Notes: a model not told the origin generated them from the sequence alone. A stretch of DNA of 14,205 nucleotides from a virus (IMGVR_UViG_2541047928_000015), one strand, 5' to 3'. Shown: positions 1-10,693, counted from the first letter of the stretch. Made by a program: numbers and translations.

Positions 1-462
1 ATGACGGCGAAAACAGCACCGAAAGTCACGCTGTGGGAGTTCTTCCAGCAGTTAGGCAAAACCTTCATGTTACCCGTGGCATTATTGTCGTTCTGCGGCA
101 TTATGCTCGGCATTGGTAGTTCTCTTAGCAGCCATGATGTCATCACCCTGATCCCGGTCCTGGGCAACCCCGTGTTGCAGGCTATCTTTACCTGGATGAG
201 TAAGATTGGCTCGTTTGCTTTTAGTTTCCTGCCAGTCATGTTCTGTATCGCCATCCCGCTGGGTCTGGCACGCGAAAACAAAGGCGTAGCGGCATTCGCT
301 GGCTTCGTCGGTTATGCGGTAATGAACCTCGCGGTAAACTTCTGGTTGACCAATAAAGGCATTCTGCCAACCACGGACGCCGCAGTTCTGAAAGCCAATA
401 ATTCACAGGTGTTTTTTCCCATCCTGTGGTTTCCTTGGCGTTTTCTAGGTTTTTTCAGATAG
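1..462 (+). pseudogene. malX: PTS system EIICB component, glucose/maltose family (MalX-like), N-terminal ~135 codons only; frame then runs into unrelated sequence and stops after 18 more codons
   Basis: Translation MTAKTAPKVTLWEFFQQLGKTFMLPVALLSFCGIMLGIGSS... reads as the N-terminal membrane domain of a PTS EIIC protein and matches my recollection of E. coli MalX. An EIIC domain needs ~350 aa, so a 153-aa product is truncated. The C-terminal 18 residues (SQVFFPILWFPWRFLGFFR) are not transporter-like. Sequence character changes at about nt 406. Confidence 0.55.
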
Positions 463-1116: not shown

Positions 1117-1184
1117 GTCAACATATCCTGAATCAGACATACAATATCGCAATGAAAATCAATAATATTTTAAGGAATATATTC

Positions 1185-1418
1185 ATGAAATCAAAAGACA
1201 CCCTAAAGTGGTTCCCTGCGCAGCTTCCTGAAGTCAGAATTATCCTAGGGGATGCTGTAGTGGAAGTAGCAAAACAGGGAAGACCTATCAATACCAGAAC
1301 ATTGCTTGATTACATTGAAGGAAACATAAAGAAAAAATCATGGCTGGATAACAAAGAATTATTACAAACAGCGATATCAGTTCTTAAAGACAACCAAAAT
1401 TTAAATGGTAAAATGTAA
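1185..1418 (+). CDS. Hypothetical small protein, 77 aa from the SD-preceded ATG (88 aa if upstream ATG at 1152 is used)
   Basis: ORF track 1152..1418. The internal ATG at 1185 is preceded by AAGGAA at an 8-nt spacing, whereas the 1152 ATG has no SD. Very AT-rich coding sequence. I recognise no family. Confidence 0.45.
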   Translation: MKSKDTLKWFPAQLPEVRIILGDAVVEVAKQGRPINTRTLLDYIEGNIKKKSWLDNKELLQTAISVLKDNQNLNGKM

Positions 1419-1734: not shown

Positions 1735-2325
1735 ATGTCTCGAATTTTTGCTTACTGTCGGATATCAACGCTGGATCAGACCACCGAAAATCAACGCCGG
1801 GAAATCGAAAGTGCAGGTTTTAACATCAAATCTCAGCAAATAATCGAAGAACACATTAGCGGCTCAGCAGCAACCAGTGAGCGTCCTGGTTTTAACCGGT
1901 TGCTTGCTCGCCTGAAATGTGGTGATCAATTGATTGTGACAAAACTGGATCGCCTTGGTTGTAATGCAATGGATATCAGGAAAACAGTGGAACAACTGAC
2001 CGAAACAGGTATCAGAGTGCATTGCTTAGCATTGGGGGGCATTGACCTGACCAGTCCAACAGGAAAAATGATGATGCAAGTAATTTCAGCAGTCGCTGAA
2101 TTTGAACGAGACCTTTTACTTGAACGCACTCATTCCGGGATAGTAAGAGCCCGCGGCGCAGGGAAACGTTTTGGTCGACCACCTGTGTTAAATGAAGAAC
2201 AGAAACAGGTGGTATTCGAACGAATTAAGTCAGGTGTAAGTATAAGTGCCATTGCCCGGGAATTCAAAACCTCGCGGCAAACCATTTTAAGAGCCAAAGC
2301 AAAACTTCAGACACCTGACATATAA
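1735..2325 (+). CDS. Serine recombinase of the resolvase/invertase family (Pin/Hin/Gin-like), 196 aa
   Basis: N-terminal catalytic motif YCRISTLDQ (Ser10), DRLG motif, E..ER acidic patch, GRPP linker and C-terminal helix-turn-helix. Position beside the tail fibre genes is the classic Pin location in e14/Rac-type prophages. Only about one-third identity to Gin/PinE by eye, so invertase versus resolvase is unresolved. Confidence 0.9.
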
Positions 2326-2422: not shown

Positions 2423-2542
2423 CTACGGCAGTGCTGGCCATTCAATATCCTGTGCAGTTGACGTATCAACACGGTTCAGCAATACCCGATACTTTTTCCA
2501 TGCTTCCAGCAACGAGATTTCTTCCTCCGTTGCATATACAGC
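2423..2542 (-). pseudogene. tfa: Fossil 3-prime end of tail fibre assembly gene tfa (last 39 codons, no start codon)
   Basis: Minus-strand translation [39 protein letters not shown]-stop is nearly identical to the lambda Tfa C-terminus as I recall it (...[34 protein letters not shown]...). It is preceded in frame by TGA at 2543-2545, and upstream sequence shows no Tfa similarity in any frame I read. Confidence 0.7.
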
Positions 2543-2887: not shown

Positions 2888-3928
2888 TTATTTAGACGCA
2901 AGCGTCGCCTCAATTGCAGATAATCTTTGCCTTAATTCTGCGTTTTCTTCTTCCAGTACTGTTATTCTGTCGTCTGACTCTCTGGCTACCTGAACAAGCA
3001 AGCCAGTAACACCAGAATAATCTACTGTGTAATAACGTTCACCTTCTTCACCTTCCGATCCGCTTGCACCGTCCTGATATTTCATTGCGGAACCGACAAC
3101 TTCTGGGATTGCTTCCAGAGCTTCCTGTGCAATGACACCTGCATAGGGCATACCGTTTTCTTTAAGCGTGTATGTATAGCCGTTCATTTTACGGATGCGG
3201 TCGGTTGCATTATCGATCACCTGAATGTTGTCTTTCAGATCCCGGTCGGAATGCTGGTTAAATGCGGTGGCATGACATGCACCATTAACGCTTAACATAT
3301 AGGTGTTATCGGTATTTTTCTGCGCATAGAACATATACGCGCCACCATCAGCACCAACTTCATATACAACCGGACGGGTAGAGTTACCCCACAAACTAGT
3401 AGTAGCGCCAGAATGAGCGGTCCCCTGTGTGTTTAATGTCATGGTTGACCCATGATTGGCATATTTGATTTGTAATGTGTCTGTGCAGTCAAACTTAATA
3501 AGCGCGTTACTTCCCCGCACACCATACGACATGAGACAGTTCCCCATCTTAAGGTAACCATCACTGCCTGGAAAAATTAATGTTCCGCCGTAAAGATCGC
3601 TAAAATCCCAAAAGATACCTTTTGTTCCATTGTGTGTGACAATCCTTGTCATTGTATCTTTTGTACCGTCAATATTTTTTCTGGTGTACATCTCACTATA
3701 AGCGTTTTCGGTTTCTCCTGTCTTATTTGACAAGTGAATCTTACCGCTAAATATAGTTCCAGTGGTCGGCAATGCCTTTTGATCATAGATTACATTGCAA
3801 TAACTATTCCATGTTGTTTTATTGTCTACATATGATTTTGTTGCATAGCTTCCTTGATCAGTTTTTAGTTTACTAACATCGGATTTTAGCGTTTTGATGT
3901 CATCAGGAATTACTGTTTTTGTAACCAT
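2888..3928 (-). CDS. Tail fibre / tail spike-like protein with C-terminal intramolecular chaperone auto-processing domain (peptidase S74-like), 346 aa
   Basis: C-terminal ~120 aa (SDRDLKDNIQVIDNATDRIRKMNGYTYTLKENG ... ITVLEEENAELRQRLSAIEATLASK) has the hallmark S-D-x-x-L-K-x-N-I start and terminal coiled coil of the self-cleaving chaperone domain found in phage endosialidases and the T5 L-shaped fibre. GGAG SD 9 nt upstream of the ATG, lying inside the end of orf89. Lower GC than the J gene. Confidence 0.8.
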   Translation of the reverse strand: MVTKTVIPDDIKTLKSDVSKLKTDQGSYATKSYVDNKTTWNSYCNVIYDQKALPTTGTIFSGKIHLSNKTGETENAYSEMYTRKNIDGTKDTMTRIVTHNGTKGIFWDFSDLYGGTLIFPGSDGYLKMGNCLMSYGVRGSNALIKFDCTDTLQIKYANHGSTMTLNTQGTAHSGATTSLWGNSTRPVVYEVGADGGAYMFYAQKNTDNTYMLSVNGACHATAFNQHSDRDLKDNIQVIDNATDRIRKMNGYTYTLKENGMPYAGVIAQEALEAIPEVVGSAMKYQDGASGSEGEEGERYYTVDYSGVTGLLVQVARESDDRITVLEEENAELRQRLSAIEATLASK

Positions 3929-3940
3929 TGTCTTACTCCA

Positions 3941-4210
3941 TTAAGCCCATGTCCTTACATGCTGATCTGTCGTAATGAAAGGCATTAAAGAAGATATGTT
4001 TTTACTGCTATCAACAATCCTCATGTTTACGAAAAAACCACCGCGATCAATGCCTGTACATCTTTCGTTTTCTGGCTCCTCGTAATCGATAATGCAGCCA
4101 ATAACATCAACAAGAACCCCGTTTTCTTCTTCAAGACTGAACAGGCCACTGTCATATACAATTGCGTTAAACTGTTCTCTGTTATCGAATCGTAATGTTA
4201 TATCTCGCAT
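3941..4210 (-). CDS. Hypothetical acidic 89-aa protein, translationally coupled to the side tail fibre gene (possible fibre adaptor or assembly factor)
   Basis: ATG overlaps the stf stop (TAATG on the minus strand at 4212-4208). No family recognised. Confidence 0.6.
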   Translation of the reverse strand: MRDITLRFDNREQFNAIVYDSGLFSLEEENGVLVDVIGCIIDYEEPENERCTGIDRGGFFVNMRIVDSSKNISSLMPFITTDQHVRTWA

Positions 4211-6567
4211 TATACGTATTCCTTAAGCTGCGTATCTGACAATGCTCTGTTCCAGAAACGGAGGTTTTTTATATGACCATTAAGGTGTCGTAATCCTGTC
4301 GTCGTTTGCCCCCCGATACGAATCACGGCTGCTTCACGAATATATTTCCATACTGTTTTTGTTTCAGCGCTTATATGCTTATTTGCAAATGAGCATGTCA
4401 TGCCGTCAGCCTTAACCCTGAATCCCATAACGAGATCCCTTACTCCGCATGATTCATATACACGTCGGTTAGCCCCGCCTATATCGCAATACGAATAACC
4501 GTCCTGACTGATAGTTCCAGAAGAACCAAACCCCATAATAAATGGGCCTCCGGACTGGTGATTTTCTGAATCAATGACACGCGGTGCAGCATTATGAGAA
4601 ATAAACCAGTTTTTATGGACTTCCACCATGAACGTAAAAGGCATGGTATACATATTTTTCATCAGCGGAAATTTACATAAATCTGATGCACGAGTCGCTG
4701 GCTCTGTTGTCGTTATGATGAAGGAAGTTGCACAAGCACCATACTCGAATTGCGGGGTGGTTACTTCTATCCAGTCACCTGTTGCAAAAGCTCCCACAGC
4801 TCTGTCGGCTGCAATTTGCAGCTGCGTACCAACCATTCCCCATTCTGGCAGACATTTCAGTGTTGCCTGAAAATATATCCATCCACTACCAGGGTCGATT
4901 TCAAAGTTTGCTGTTAATAGCTGGGCATTGCCACCAGTAATTTGTAGTTCATGGGTCTGTAATGACAAATAGGCGTCGCAAAGGAAGGTGTATCCTTCCG
5001 AGTTATACCGTTCAAAACGGATACGTGCGCGAACATTGAGATCACTTCTTACCCTGAACGACGCGGTAACATACGGACCTTTACTGTACTGATCATCGCC
5101 AGTCACATCTATGCCTTTGTTACCAGCAACTGTGCATATATTTCTCCCTGTTGTCGTTCCTGCTATATCGCTTCCTACCGTGAAACGTCCATATTTAAAC
5201 TCAAATTCATCTGTTGATGATGTTACAGATATACCACCGCTTTTATTCCACGCATCAGGATTAAAACTATTTACGAACATGTTTGTTCGCTGATTCTCTA
5301 TCAGCAAACCATATTTTTCAAAACGAGGAACGTTATTACCTGCCACGGTAATATGCCCGGACTTATCAATATACGTTGCAGATGAAGCCCGGCTAAATTG
5401 GCATATGCCATTAACTGGCACAGTGATTTCATCGCTGCCGATGGTTATTGTTTTATACCCCGGCGCATACCCTGTTATCGCTTCCAGAGAATCATTCAAG
5501 GGTAGCCAGATATCAGGAAGCGGAGGGACAGAAGCAGGATCAGCGGCATCTTCTGCAATCCGGGCTGCATTCTCTGCTCTTGTTGCGGCTGACGTTGCTT
5601 CTGTCTCGCTGGCTGCTGCTTTTGTTTCGCTCGCCTTTGCGTTAGTTTCACTGGTTTTTGCAGCTTTTTGGCTATTAGCTGCCGCTGTTGCAGAACCAGC
5701 TGCAGCACTCTCGCTTTCGGCTGCTGCATCCTGACTGCTTTTCGCCGCAGTTTCGCTGGCTTTGGCATTCGTTTCGCTGGTCTTCGCTGCCGTCTGGCTG
5801 GACTTTGCGTTAGTTTCACTCGTCTTCGCAGCTTTCTGGCTGTTAGCCGCAGCAGTTGCTGATCCAGCTGCTGAAGTCGCAGAACCGGCTGCCGCGCTCT
5901 CGCTTTGGGCTGCTGCAACCTGGCTGTTTTTTGCCGCAGTTTCACTGGCTTTGGCATTCGTTTCGCTGGTCTTCGCTGCCGTCTGGCTGGACTTTGCGTT
6001 GGTTTCGCTCGTCTTTGCGGCTGTCTCGCTGTTTTTCGCGTTGGTTTCTGATTTTTTGGCTGCTGTCGCGGAGTTTGCCGATGCAGTCTGCGAGGACGCT
6101 GCCGCCTGTGCGCTGTTAGCTGCATTCGTTTCTGAGGTTTTCGCCGCGTTCTTCGATGATGCCGCTGCAGTTTCGGATTTCTTTGCCACCGCTGCGCTCT
6201 GAGAGGCGGCTTCGGCGTTGCGTGCCGCTTCTTCCACCATTGCCTCAAAACGACGCAATGCCTCCGGCATGACATCATCTTCCGTCATGGCACCGAGAAA
6301 ATCATTCAGCGTACCTGGTCTGGAACCTTCATAGACGGTAATGATCCCGGCATGTGAAGGCGGAAAACCTTCAACCAGCAGGATAACGCTATACTGGCCA
6401 TACTCAACGTCCATGCTGTAACGCCCGGCTTCATCCGGATTTTCAGAGGCCACCGTGTTCACCAGTACAGTGGTGCTGTTACGCTTTGCCTTCAGTTGAA
6501 TAGTGCAGTTCTGTATTGGTTTTCCCGCACCATCTTTCAGCACACCTGAGATTTTTACTGCTGCCAT
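4210..6567 (-). CDS. stf: Side tail fibre protein: lambda Stf-like N-terminal anchor and Ala/Ser/Thr/Lys repeat shaft, non-lambda distal region ending in a ConA/LamG-like lectin domain
   Basis: N-terminus MAAVKISGVLKDGAGKPIQNCTIQLKAKRNSTTVLVNTVASENPDEAGRYSMDVEYGQYSVIL is near-identical to lambda Stf as I recall it. C-terminus ...RIGGQTTTGLRHLNGHIKNLRFWNRALSDTQLKEY matches the LamG-type signature (G-x-I-x-x-hRhWNRALS-x-x-Q/E-h). Start placed at ATG 6567 (GGAG 5 nt upstream) rather than the track's GTG at 6573, which lies inside that SD. Confidence 0.9.
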   Translation of the reverse strand: MAAVKISGVLKDGAGKPIQNCTIQLKAKRNSTTVLVNTVASENPDEAGRYSMDVEYGQYSVILLVEGFPPSHAGIITVYEGSRPGTLNDFLGAMTEDDVMPEALRRFEAMVEEAARNAEAASQSAAVAKKSETAAASSKNAAKTSETNAANSAQAAASSQTASANSATAAKKSETNAKNSETAAKTSETNAKSSQTAAKTSETNAKASETAAKNSQVAAAQSESAAAGSATSAAGSATAAANSQKAAKTSETNAKSSQTAAKTSETNAKASETAAKSSQDAAAESESAAAGSATAAANSQKAAKTSETNAKASETKAAASETEATSAATRAENAARIAEDAADPASVPPLPDIWLPLNDSLEAITGYAPGYKTITIGSDEITVPVNGICQFSRASSATYIDKSGHITVAGNNVPRFEKYGLLIENQRTNMFVNSFNPDAWNKSGGISVTSSTDEFEFKYGRFTVGSDIAGTTTGRNICTVAGNKGIDVTGDDQYSKGPYVTASFRVRSDLNVRARIRFERYNSEGYTFLCDAYLSLQTHELQITGGNAQLLTANFEIDPGSGWIYFQATLKCLPEWGMVGTQLQIAADRAVGAFATGDWIEVTTPQFEYGACATSFIITTTEPATRASDLCKFPLMKNMYTMPFTFMVEVHKNWFISHNAAPRVIDSENHQSGGPFIMGFGSSGTISQDGYSYCDIGGANRRVYESCGVRDLVMGFRVKADGMTCSFANKHISAETKTVWKYIREAAVIRIGGQTTTGLRHLNGHIKNLRFWNRALSDTQLKEYV
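5580..6125. repeat. Imperfect tandem DNA repeats (three ~120-190-bp units on a 21-bp / 7-codon periodicity) inside the stf shaft-coding region
   Basis: Seen directly: 5747-5823 is almost identical to 5936-6011, and 5630-5750 closely resembles 5800-5936. Protein shows repeating KTSETNA/KSSQTAA/KASETAA heptads. Confidence 0.7.
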
Positions 6568-6578
6568 ATCCACTCCAC

Positions 6579-6631: not shown

Positions 6632-7231
6632 TCAGAATTTATAACCGACACCCACGATGAAACCGTCAGTGCGCCAGTCGCCACTGCCGGAGCCTTCATA
6701 AGCAATATCAATGGCCACGGATTCGGTCGGGTTAAACTGCACGCCAGCTCCCCACGCCAGAGACGTGTTGCTGTGGCGATCGTCATCACTTCCGGTCAGC
6801 ACATCGTGCGTTTTCCCCTTGTTGTCAGTTACGCGGAGATAATCCCCGGAGAACGTCGAAACACGGCTGTAAGCCACACCTGCCATCGCATAAGCACTGA
6901 ACCATTCATTCACGCGTACAGACGGCCCCGCCATCATGCTGAACCAGCGGTTACGCACTGAATCTTCATGCCAGCGGGTATCGCTGTAATGCGTTTTTTG
7001 CTCATCTTTGGCATTGGCATAACTGAATGACGTCACCAGCCCCAGCGTGTCCGTAAATTCATAACGGTATTTCACGTTAATGCCCTTCAGGTCATCGTTG
7101 CCGGGCATATCAGTATGGGTCTGAAGATACCCGGCGCTTAGTGTGGACTGATGCTCTGCTGCGCTCGCTGGCGTACCAGCGGCGACCAGCCAGACTACTG
7201 TGGACAGAATAACAGCACATAATTTACGCAT
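6632..7231 (-). CDS. lom: Lom outer membrane protein (Ail/Lom/PagC beta-barrel family), signal peptide present
   Basis: 199 aa. C-terminal IAYEGSGSGDWRTDGFIVGVGYKF and internal motifs (KGINVKYRYE, SAYAMAGVA) match lambda Lom. Same position as in lambda, between J and stf. Confidence 0.95.
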   Translation of the reverse strand: MRKLCAVILSTVVWLVAAGTPASAAEHQSTLSAGYLQTHTDMPGNDDLKGINVKYRYEFTDTLGLVTSFSYANAKDEQKTHYSDTRWHEDSVRNRWFSMMAGPSVRVNEWFSAYAMAGVAYSRVSTFSGDYLRVTDNKGKTHDVLTGSDDDRHSNTSLAWGAGVQFNPTESVAIDIAYEGSGSGDWRTDGFIVGVGYKF

Positions 7232-7297: not shown

Positions 7298-10200
7298 TCA
7301 GCTGATACTGATGCCTGCGGTGGCTTTCTTCATCACCACAACCAGCAAATCGCTGATACTTGCTGTGGGATACCAGTCATTTACCAGCCATGCTGACACC
7401 GAAAACTCCAGCGTCATGTGACCGTGACCGGCAGGCATATCAATAACGCCACTGTAAATCAGCGTATTATCCAGCGCGGTACGGTTATAAATTTCAGCAC
7501 CGTTTTTCCGCACTATCAGACGGCATGAGGAGTAAATATCAGTATGCTCTCTCTCATGTTTAGCGCCGCTGAATGCCACCGCCGGAATAACAATCTGCCG
7601 GTCAAACGGCTGATCGTCATAAACCCTGACGGTAATGGTCCCTGATGGCCACCGTTCCGGTGCACGGGAGTCCCGGGGGAAAGCTTTGCCCACTGTTTTA
7701 ACGAGATCGCCTTCAATCTGGTTCGCGGACAGTTTTCCCAGAACCCGACAGTTCTCGTTAATCGTGACGTTGTTGAGCGTCCCGGAGTTCGCATTCACGT
7801 TACCGCTGATATCGGCATTTTTCGCCGTCAGCCGCCCATCCGGTGTCAGGGAAAATGCCGGTGGATTTCCACCACTGGTAATGGTGGGGGCCGTCAGGCG
7901 TTTCAGGAACACGTCGTTCATGAATATCTGATTGCCCTGCGCCACAAACATCGGCGTTTCATTCCCGTTTGCCGGGTCAATAAACGCGATACGGTTAGCG
8001 GCAACCAGAAACTGGCTCAGTTTGCCTTCCTCCGTGTCCTCCATACTGAGGCCAATACCCGCGACATAATGTTTGCCGTCTTTGGTCTGCTCAATTTTGA
8101 CAGCCCACATGGCATTCCATTTATCGTTGGCATCCTTCCACTCTTTCGAAAACTCATCCAGTCTGCTGGCGTTATCCTCCGTCAGATCGACTTTTTCCAG
8201 CAGCTCCTTGCCGAGATGGGATTCGGTTATCTTGCCTTTGAAAAAATCCAGGTAACCTTCCGCATCATCGCTCGCCCGACCGACGGACTCCACGAATGCC
8301 GATTTGCCAACGGTGTTCACACTGCGGATATAAAAGTAATAATCATGGCCCGGTTTGATATTGATACTGGCGGCTATCCAGTACAGCCCCGTGCCAAGGT
8401 AGCGGGCTGTGGTTTCAACCTGCCTGATATCGGTAATCCGCGTTTCCGAGAACCAGAACTCAAACTGTACCGTCGGATCATAAACCGCAAGATGCGGCGT
8501 GGCGGTGATCTGAAAATAGCCCGGCGTCAGCTCAATCCTCGACGGTGCTGCCGGTGCGGCAATCCGGAACGATACCGACGCCGGATCGCCCTGCTGCCCC
8601 CACGCATTTACCGCCCGGACTGTCAGCCTGTAGTTCCCCAGCGCCAGCTGCGTGAAGCGGTATGTGGTTTCCGCCGTCCGGGCCGTGCTGACCAGCCGCT
8701 CACTGCCGTCATCCGCTGCCACGGTCAGGCGAAGCATAAAGCTCACCCCCTTCACCACCTTCGGCGTATCCCAGCGTGCCAGCACCTGATACTCCCCGCT
8801 GTCTGCGGTGACTTCGGCAGTCAGGTGCTGCACCGCTGGCGGCGTGACACCATTCACCGTGCCGCTCTGGTCGCCGTCAAAGTGCGCCCCGTTATCCACG
8901 ATGGCTTCTTTTTCCGGTACATGCTGCACGGCGGTGATGGCATACGTGCCGTCGTCGTTCTCACGGATACTCACGCAGCGGAACAGGCGCTGGCGCAGCG
9001 TCGGCAGCTTCAGCCCCCATACGCTGTATTCAGCAACGCCGTCAGGAACACGGCTCACTTTCACCTTCACGCCGTCGGTGACGGACTGGACCTCCACGCT
9101 GACCGGATTGCCACTTCCGTCAACCAGGCTTATCAGCGTGGTACCGGAGGATGGCAGCGTGATTTCACGGTCGAGCGTCAGCGTCCGGGTCTGGCTGTTC
9201 ACAGCCAGCACGCGCCCGCCGATGCTGATCCCCGCATAGTCATCATCGCAGATTTCAATAACATCCCCCGGCACATGGCGAAGCCCTTCGGCACCCACGC
9301 TGAAATCCACGGTCTGCGTCTCCAGCAGCTCCGTTTTAATCAGCCACAGCCCGGCGCGGTGTGCCTGCCCCCGACTGGTACAGCCAAAGGCATCCATCTT
9401 CGTGACGTTACGACCGTAACGGGCAATGGCCTGCGTGTCCTCCACAAGCTCTGTCGCCGTCTCCCAGCCGTTATCCGGGTCAATCCAGTTCACCTCAACG
9501 GCATTATGACGGTCCTTCAGGGCGCTGAAGCTGTAGCGGAACGGCGCGCCATCATCCGGCATCACCACATTACTGCGGTTATAGGTCCACACCTTATCCG
9601 ATGGCCGGTCCTGCACGAACGTCAGCGTCTGCCCGTTCCATACCGGCATACAGCGCATCGCCGAGCAGAAATCACTGAGCACATCCCACGCCTTGCGCTG
9701 TGTGGTCAGGTACGCATTACAGGCGATGCGCGGCTCCGTGCCGCCAAAGCCGTCCGGCACCGACTGGTCGCAGTACTGGCCGATGACATACAGCGCCCAT
9801 TTATCCACATCCGCCGCACCAAGACGTTTCCCCATGCCGTAGCGCGGATGGGTCAGCATATCCCACAGACACCAGGCCATGTTGTTGCTGTATGCCGGTT
9901 TTAACGTTCCGTCCCAGATACCGCTGTATTGTCGCGTCTGCGGGTTATAGTTCGACGGCACCTGCAGAATGCGCCCGCGAAGATGATAATTACGACTCAC
10001 CTGCTGACTGCCGAACTGCTCCGAGTCCACCTGTACGCCAACCAGTGCCGTGTTCGGGTAGCACTGTTTCACATCGATGATTTCGGTGTATGACGACCAG
10101 AGCGTTTTGTTCTGCAGCTGGTCTGTGGTGCTGTCCGGCGTCATCCTGCGCATCCGGATATTAAACGGGCGCGGCGGCAGGTTATCCACCACCACCGAGG

Positions 10201-10693
10201 CCAGATACTGCGAGGTGGTTTTGCCCTTAATGGTGATGTCTTTTTCCGTCACCCAGCCACCGTTACGCTGTATCTGAACCAGCAGGCGGACTTCCGACGG
10301 ATTCCTGTCACCCTTTGAGGTGGTTTCCACCAGTGCCTGCACGCCGAAAGTAAAGCGCAGACGGTCGATGTTTGCCGACGTGATGGTGCGGGTGATCGGC
10401 ATGTCATATTTCACTTCCATACCCAGCACCGTCTCGGAGCCGGAGGATTCAAACCCCTCCGGCGGAGTCTGCTCCTGCTCACCTGCCCGGAACACCGCCG
10501 TAACACCGGAAATGTTGGTATTCCCTTCACTGTCCAGCACCGGCGTACTGTTCAGCAGCACGCTTTTTAACCCATCCACCGGACCTTCAATCGGCCCTTC
10601 GCTGATGACATCGATCACACTCAGCAACTGCGTGGATTTCAGGTTGTCCTTCGCTTCGCGCGGGGTATGCCCCTTACTGCTGCCTTTACCCAT
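7298..10693 (-). CDS. J: Tail tip host specificity protein J (central tail fibre), 1131 aa
   Basis: Length and sequence along the whole protein resemble lambda J, including the C-terminal end ...[32 protein letters not shown]. Confidence 0.97.

Follow-up and report, generated by a model that had tools for sequence, protein, structure and literature searches.

A small acidic protein encoded after stf in an Escherichia coli lambdoid prophage, a candidate assembly partner of a mobile tail fibre end

Genes and features of the stf region

The stretch of DNA analysed here (the window; 14,205 nucleotides of IMGVR_UViG_2541047928_000015) was the late-operon end of an Escherichia coli lambdoid prophage. 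gpJ (7298-10693), Lom (6632-7231), stf (4210-6573), a small open reading frame designated S (3941-4210), a second fibre gene designated orf346 (2888-3928) and a small membrane protein gene, orf107 (2553-2876), were all encoded on the minus strand.

Stf (F1; 787 amino acids, GTG start) matched Pfam PF08400 (E 6e-66) and PHROG 1419, and its N-terminus matched the tail-fibre N-terminus of PDB 9e7m. It comprised a phage_tail_N attachment domain (amino acids 5-134), Ala/Ser-rich repeats (about 135-345) and a distal part, designated F1C (amino acids 331-787; 4213-5583, minus strand), which was recognised as a mobile module from homology across lineages; its homologues were 34-58% identical across all lineages examined. 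Amino acids ~424-629 matched NCBIfam GTA_spike_fiber ('phage head spike fiber'; E 3e-13), and the AF2 monomer of F1C contained a confident beta-sandwich at amino acids 437-614 (pLDDT mostly 67-91 over ~440-610) which, when searched with Foldseek, resembled phage fibre domains and CBMs (E ~5e-5). The remaining amino acids, 615-787, gave a match to Laminin_G_3, a ConA-like lectin domain, that was too weak to pass the cut-off (E 7e-4). The 'lectin domain' that a sequence-only reading of the window had assigned to Stf corresponds to two beta-sandwich or lectin-like parts, the CBM-like sandwich and the sub-threshold Laminin_G_3 region. Conservation across F1C was highest at amino acids 351-430 and 611-787, with the sandwich between them more variable. 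The LamG-like end agrees with the 'galectin-like' domain reported for the homologous Gp22 of phage IrisVonRoten (PMC11990801). Amino acids 615-787 (4213-4731, minus strand) were the most conserved part of the fibre end, with 80-90% column identity, and had pLDDT values below 50, mostly 21-37, in the AF2 monomer. This poor model may mean that folding requires a partner or oligomerisation, or it may stem from an uninformative alignment, shallow and nearly invariant in this part.

S encoded an 89 amino acid protein, identified by its open reading frame and translation, a PHROG match and an AF2 model. The sequence-only reading had placed an acidic protein of this length here, and the composition bore this out, with a pI of 4.38, 16 aspartate and glutamate residues against 8 lysine and arginine residues, and a net charge of -8.4. 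No hydrophobic segment or signal-like N-terminus was found in S. The AF2 model, which was built on an alignment of database proteins, had a pLDDT of 71 and an alpha+beta fold; comparison with the PDB revealed neither sequence relatives of S nor an informative structural relative of its model.

The overlap of the S start codon with the stf stop codon, which had also been pointed out, can be read directly in the minus-strand letters across the junction, CTTAAGGAATACGTATAATGCGAGAT. The stf TAA (4212-4210) and the S ATG (4210-4208) have base 4210 in common, as TAATG, and a Shine-Dalgarno-like AAGGA motif (4224-4220) lies inside the 3' end of stf, separated from the S ATG by a 9-nt spacer (junction 4208-4224, minus strand). 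S ended in TAA (3943-3941) and was followed by a 12-nt spacer (3929-3940, minus strand), with GGAG at 3939-3936, before the orf346 ATG at 3928. A scan for terminator-like sites between stf, S and orf346 found none. Overlapping stop/start pairs are frequent in phage operons, so the TAATG overlap alone is ordinary. It makes co-translation of S with Stf plausible, but the stoichiometric co-expression that had been read from it does not follow, as no fixed 1:1 ratio is implied.

The second fibre, orf346 (F2; 346 amino acids), matched Pfam PF13884 (E 6e-14) and PHROG 4563. The Pfam match corresponded to a Peptidase_S74 intramolecular chaperone domain at amino acids 227-278 (3095-3250, minus strand). 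Motif alignment placed a putative docking peptide, MVTKTVIPDDIKTLKS, at the N-terminus of orf346 (3881-3928, minus strand; F2 N-terminal peptide letters: MVTKTVIPDDIKTLKSDVSKLK). Pfam analysis revealed no Peptidase_S74 domain in Stf or in S. F1C was thus encoded without S74 and without an intact Tfa, the neighbouring tfa (2423-2542, minus strand) being a relic whose translation gave the last 39 codons only; in the same place, E. coli strain A33 has a gene annotated 'tail fiber assembly protein, incomplete'.

orf107 (designated M) matched PHROG 1443 (E 1e-57) and had a homologous core of 97 amino acids, counted from the ATG at 2846, with two hydrophobic segments. Copies of M were found in three other loci (L083 7289-7585, L093 7583-7879 and L002 6970-7263). 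In prophages M was the last gene of the cassette, as F1-S-F2-M or, in several of them, F1-S-M; it was absent from lytic phages with the same module and is a candidate lysogenic-conversion or exclusion protein. Beyond the tfa relic lay a Pin-type serine invertase gene (1735-2325, plus strand; Pfam Resolvase E 1e-36, HTH_7). Inverted repeats flanking this gene or bounding a segment were sought and none were found; an invertible fibre segment was accordingly rejected and the invertase is regarded as a relic. The tfa relic and Pin are the remains of an stf-tfa-pin locus that was overwritten by the F1C-S-F2-M cassette.

Other open reading frames were observed in the window. One of 611 amino acids ran antisense within gpJ (8069-9904, plus strand), and several of 87-146 amino acids lay antisense to the Ala/Ser repeats of stf (5405-6202, plus strand); these are probably artefacts of composition. 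An open reading frame at 1-462 (plus strand) resembled by eye the N-terminal portion of a membrane protein of the PTS EIIC type and ended early, and one of 88 amino acids at 1152-1418 (plus strand) looked by its sequence like the prophage cold-shock protein YdfK/YnaE; strain A33 has an annotated ydfK next to the invertase. This suggests a prophage boundary, possibly with a disrupted host gene, within the first ~1.1 kb.

The S protein family

Residues 1-89 of S aligned to positions 1-92 of the 92 positions of PHROG 1361, annotated as 'unknown function', with an E value of 9.6e-31. S matched no Pfam or NCBIfam family, and a Pfam search with 32 members of the S family gave no match to any family (0/32). 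The hhalign comparison of S with the Caudo_TAP protein of a P2-like prophage (L092) returned a probability of 0.5%. These results uphold the earlier statement that S is unlike Tfa.

A profile search retrieved 349 S homologues, none of them named, and tblastn revealed matches in 178 phage records, with hosts of the gene among lambdoid, Drexlerviridae, Dhillonvirus, Seuratvirus/Nonagvirus (Queuovirinae), T5-like and Vequintavirus phages; it was also present in a P2-like prophage. Homologues with 28-40% identity occupied the same position in unrelated phage families. The members were 85-110 amino acids long and acidity was common to them (pI 4.05-4.52, net charge -8 to -13). M1, D3, F8, G38, G58, N62, R64, R86 and W88 were invariant in both alignments made; the 20-sequence alignment alone added I65 to the invariant set and showed D35 and I37 as almost invariant. 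Outside the invariant residues identity was ~30%, and the C-terminal motif R-x-W-A was nearly invariant. pN/pS across classes of S ranged from 0.17 to 0.34, with 0.17 for the S of the window, which indicates that S is under purifying selection and is a real gene rather than a chance open reading frame.

The identical 270-nt S gene is present in E. coli chromosomes, and the plaque-forming relative PhiR55_1 also encodes an identical S. Among 5426 complete E. coli genomes, 141 carried an allele with at least 95% identity, and there the product is annotated 'hypothetical protein' and adjoins a 'prophage tail fiber N-terminal domain-containing protein'. A word-index search with the single S sequence returned 4 fragments only, and a HMMER scan of 1.84 billion representatives returned two true clusters only; the additional hits were rejected as noise from repeat proteins (P0007, P0008) and as a chimera that carries a frameshift (P0005). 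No relatives were found when the S profile was run against one genome per species. The family is visible only through a profile and barely by single-sequence search.

A divergent member was encoded by the lytic Vequintavirus CarlMeissner (bas48_0027; L088 7001-7333). This S-like protein of 110 amino acids followed a 1479 amino acid fibre ending in F1C; it had neither R64 nor the C-terminal R-x-W-A, and no second fibre followed it. rV5 encoded a different allele of the CarlMeissner-type fibre, and S was absent.

Linkage and exchange of S, F1C and the second fibre

In all loci examined, S began at -4 to +10 nt from the end of a fibre gene with an F1C-like C-terminal region of ~450 residues, as in the window, where the acidic S directly follows the ~450 amino acid F1C fibre end. 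The N-termini of these fibres varied and were those of lambda Stf, T5 pb1, P2 gpH or of the 1331 and 1479 amino acid fibres. The start-stop overlap had the form TAATG (-1) in lambdoid, Drexlerviridae and Vequintavirus phages and ATGA (-4) in T5-like, Seuratvirus and Dhillonvirus phages; in one prophage class a 10-nt spacer carrying AGGTGG, a strong ribosome-binding site, lay between F1 and S. The kind of overlap is therefore conserved and its form varies between lineages, with the start/stop coupling of S to F1 tight in most of them. A spacing of 9-12 nt from S to F2 was likewise kept in other lineages.

The linkage was also counted from the side of the fibre. A profile search of IMG/VR with F1C, which starts from F1C and is unbiased by S, gave 76 complete copies of F1C whose contigs extended far enough for a following gene, and in 75 of them S came directly after F1C. 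In the sole exception (L111 5375-5778, an IMG/VR prophage) an IS cuts S after codon 12. These data bear on the idea that S is a moron, immunity or exclusion gene unrelated to the fibre and hitch-hiking beside stf, or a spurious open reading frame. S is small, has no recognised domain and lies near the prophage end, and morons are frequent near prophage ends. Phages that are strictly lytic (T5-like, Drexlerviridae, Queuovirinae and Vequintavirus) nevertheless have S in the same place, and S was found after all but the IS-cut copy of F1C, with its start overlapping or tightly spaced within a late structural operon; the purifying selection on S and the lack of a hydrophobic segment or signal-like N-terminus argue in the same direction. 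A role unrelated to the fibre is close to refuted.

Sliding DNA identity was used to compare loci. Between the window and L079 it was ~95% over stf nucleotides 1-800, fell to 30-60% from ~nucleotide 900 of stf to the end of S, and was back to 91-97% exactly at the start of orf346. Between the window and both L002 and L030 it was 99% over stf and S and collapsed right after the S stop codon. Among 351 locus pairs, those with S at least 95% identical never had F1C below 80% identity, and 80 of them had F2 below 50%; those with S below 50% identical never had F1C at 80% or more, and F2 reached at least 80% in 8. Rank correlation of S with sub-regions of F1C among distant pairs, once close relatives were left out, gave no signal (rho 0.05-0.3), so the evidence for co-inheritance lies in the discordance counts only. 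Taken with the identity breakpoints, these counts place S in the F1C cassette and orf346 in a separate one, and indicate that F1C and S move as one recombination cassette.

The genes downstream of S differed between loci. Of 95 distinct S-plus-downstream configurations, 68 had an F2 bearing the conserved N-terminal motif, 1 had an F2 with a different N-terminus (L086), 7 passed from S to the membrane protein M, 15 had nothing after S and 4 ended with the contig. F2 was thus absent in 22/95, about a quarter, and was also absent after the F1C and S-like genes of CarlMeissner. In one prophage class S was followed at once by a stem-loop and a T-run that looked, on inspection by eye, like a rho-independent terminator. 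pN/pS was 0.21 in the class of S that came mainly from prophages without F2, and the invariant residues of S were unchanged whether F2 was present, absent or of the different N-terminus. F2 proteins have chaperones of more than one type, the S74 domain in orf346 and a separate Caudo_TAP Tfa in the P2-like prophage. In that prophage (L092 5001-9026, GCA_012920285.1) F1C-S-F2 was grafted onto a P2 gpH-type N-terminus and an F2 without S74 was followed by the Tfa, so that two types of helper lie side by side in one locus. In E. coli strain A33 (L001 9283-12773) the second fibre was split by ISEc8, and the F1C-S-F2 module decays in some prophages.

Alignment of F2 proteins that are otherwise unrelated showed that their first ~17 residues have M-[VAT]-T-x-T-x-I-P-x-D-I-x-x-L-K in common, with ~70% conservation. 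orf346 starts 12 nt after S and carries this motif (M.T.T.IP.DI..LK), and further copies begin at L004 6289, L005 6278 and L092 7613. When residues 1-70 of the IrisVonRoten F2 served as tblastn query, full-length matches were present only in T5-like/Seuratvirus-type phages among the matches listed; some of these, not all, were cross-checked against the S lists, and those that were cross-checked carry F1C-S. Fibres of DT57C, Wifcevirus, phiKT and Dhillonvirus matched only residues 27-70. The N-terminal peptide of F2 (17-26 residues) is therefore a putative docking plug specific to the F1C-S module, and this specificity would point to docking on F1C, on S or on both.

S could be a retained joint or socket on the tip of Stf, alone or with the LamG-like end, which receives the F2 peptide. 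The resulting fibre would be branched or in two segments, as in the earlier proposal of an adaptor linking orf346 to Stf. The order F1-S-F2 is conserved in lambdoid, T5-like, Seuratvirus, Drexlerviridae, Dhillonvirus and P2-like phages, the F2 motif persists at the start of unrelated proteins, and in DT57C, Wifcevirus and phiKT-type fibres the match starts only downstream of it. R-x-W-A, nearly invariant in a protein with ~30% identity, is lost in the F2-less Vequintavirus variant. The most directly homologous system described, that of IrisVonRoten (Bas32), has a Gp22 ~45% identical to amino acids 133-787 of Stf, a 92 amino acid Gp23 that is an S homologue (33%) and a Gp24 of F2 type that carries the N-terminal motif. 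Gp22 and Gp24 have been modelled as a proximal fibre and a T-shaped distal fibre, with Gp24 attached to Gp22 and the small Gp23 left out of account (PMC11990801). However, S remains intact, with its C-terminal motif, under purifying selection in F2-less prophage classes; its invariants are constant though the F2 N-terminus differs in L086; and S recombines with F1C, not with F2. S was also not detected in virion proteomics, for which one data set was checked, that of AKFV33 with four gel bands only (PMC3326045). Since S is kept without F2 and recombines with F1C, docking of F2 would not be its sole or ancestral role. The conserved F2 peptide keeps the adaptor proposal alive, weakened as a primary role, and we regard a retained joint as possible and distinctly less probable than the assembly role set out below.

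A proposed role for S in fibre assembly

Across the loci compared S was conserved, obligately linked to F1C and inherited with it, independent of orf346 and unrelated to Tfa. The explanation that we favour, at a probability of roughly 0.55, is that S is a non-Tfa assembly partner dedicated to F1C, the distal module of Stf. S would be translated from the late transcript right after Stf, with the ribosome restarting at the overlapping TAATG, and would thus appear where and when the C-terminus of Stf emerges. It would bind this C-terminus and be required for its folding or trimerising into a competent fibre end, in which case it would replace the Tfa of lambda, Mu and P2 or a C-terminal S74 chaperone. 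orf346 would be an optional add-on with its own chaperone that plugs into the finished tip of Stf through its N-terminal peptide. The sequence-only reading had offered a dedicated folding factor for the lectin domain as its other possibility; pairing and exchange with F1C, and the retention of S in lineages without F2, favour the dedicated factor, which could act on either of the two lectin-like parts of Stf or on neither. We infer both the binding of S to F1C and its chaperone activity, and S may then leave the fibre or stay on it.

Fibre ends generally need a dedicated chaperone, as with T4 gp57A/gp38, lambda Tfa, Mu U and the intramolecular chaperones of T5 and K1F, and globular lectin-like domains often fold without help. 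Three features count against a chaperone: the position of S between both fibre genes with a conserved 9-12 nt to F2, the F2 peptide found in F1C-S phages among the matches cross-checked, and the fact that the variant without R64 and R-x-W-A, that of CarlMeissner, belongs to an F2-less lineage. A structural joint would explain all three at least as well as a chaperone that acts transiently. The readings of S as assembly factor and as retained joint are compatible if S does both. In a tentative version of this, S and the LamG-like end would form a portable socket and the F2 peptide the plug, in a three-part system with F1C, S helping in assembly and then remaining in the joint permanently.

An assembly partner of this kind can be compared with known systems. 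Like the Tfa/gpU/gpG proteins of lambda, Mu and P2 (Caudo_TAP, PF02413), which are dedicated to one fibre end and whose start and stop codons often overlap the fibre gene, S is small, encoded directly after a fibre gene and inherited together with the C-terminal end of that fibre. Unlike them, it has no Caudo_TAP sequence or profile match, is half the size (89 amino acids against ~140-195), has a different predicted fold and is paired with a fibre end made up of a beta-sandwich and a LamG-like part. Like the S74 chaperones (PF13884) of T5 pb1, K1F endosialidase and DT57C LtfA/LtfB, S would serve one fibre C-terminus, and in orf346 such a chaperone co-occurs with S in the same locus; S differs in being a separate polypeptide rather than a cleaved domain and has no similarity to S74.

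Two tandem fibre genes with homologous shaft segments are also found in the T5-like phages DT57C and DT571/2, whose lateral fibres are branched (LtfA/LtfB); a conserved N-terminus holds the first of these fibres on the tail, and the second reaches the tail by way of the first (PMC4728585, PMC10713586). phiR2-01 was of the same type. In the window, Stf has no S74 and S lies between the fibre genes, whereas DT57C has no S and LtfA ends in S74 (PMC4728585). The match in DT57C lies in ltfA and covers only amino acids 27-70 of the F2 query, outside the N-terminal docking peptide. As DT57C has no S and an LtfA with its own S74, and as the match in its ltfA leaves out the plug, F1C-S-F2 is a different solution.

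The Alteromonas phages V22 and A5 encode separate fibre chaperones that were proposed to act as transient caps (PMC10579305). As with S, the cognate chaperone and fibre are common to distantly related phage families; their sequences are unrelated to S, and they resemble intramolecular chaperone domains, which the model of S does not. By analogy, S could be a transient cap that masks the lectin-like fibre end until release and spares the progeny from host debris. Obligate pairing and co-inheritance with F1C would be expected of a cap as of an assembly partner, the strong, conserved negative charge might imitate a receptor made of anionic polysaccharide or repel it, and such 'chaperone caps' have been cited as a possibly widespread strategy (PMC11990801). 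The idea is purely inferential, however: sequence does not tell a cap from a simple chaperone, and F2 would need to dock on a capped tip. We consider it improbable.

A literature search found no paper that names, describes or tests the S protein, and the CRISPRi-ART paper contains no data at genome scale for EdH4. The homologous locus is both annotated and modelled in the BASEL papers, where the small protein is left without a role (PMC8594841, PMC11990801), and IrisVonRoten Gp23 is entered in GenBank simply as 'tail fiber protein' or 'hypothetical'. Some GenBank records give the label 'putative lateral tail fiber chaperone' to the third gene rather than to S, presumably on account of the S74 domain in the product of that gene.

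F1C is among the most widely shared fibre ends of E. coli and Salmonella phages, occurring in seven or more groups. Its obligate partner S is 'hypothetical' in annotations and was passed over in the recent modelling of the homologous fibre. As judged from the comparison of loci, S is an accessory protein of a fibre end, unrelated in sequence to the familiar ones and obligately paired with a very mobile fibre module. If the socket and plug arrangement is true, it would let unrelated sipho- and myoviruses share one type of proximal fibre and fit it with exchangeable distal fibres for receptor binding. The range of O-antigen or capsule types within reach of a phage is set by its side and lateral tail fibres, and they are the parts most often swapped in engineered phages or phage-derived particles, where a swapped fibre end works only with its cognate helper. 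Treating F1C and S as one unit and the next fibre as a separate plug-in cassette gives a rule for the annotation of these loci and for the design of chimeras, and S matters mainly for understanding and engineering the host range of phages.
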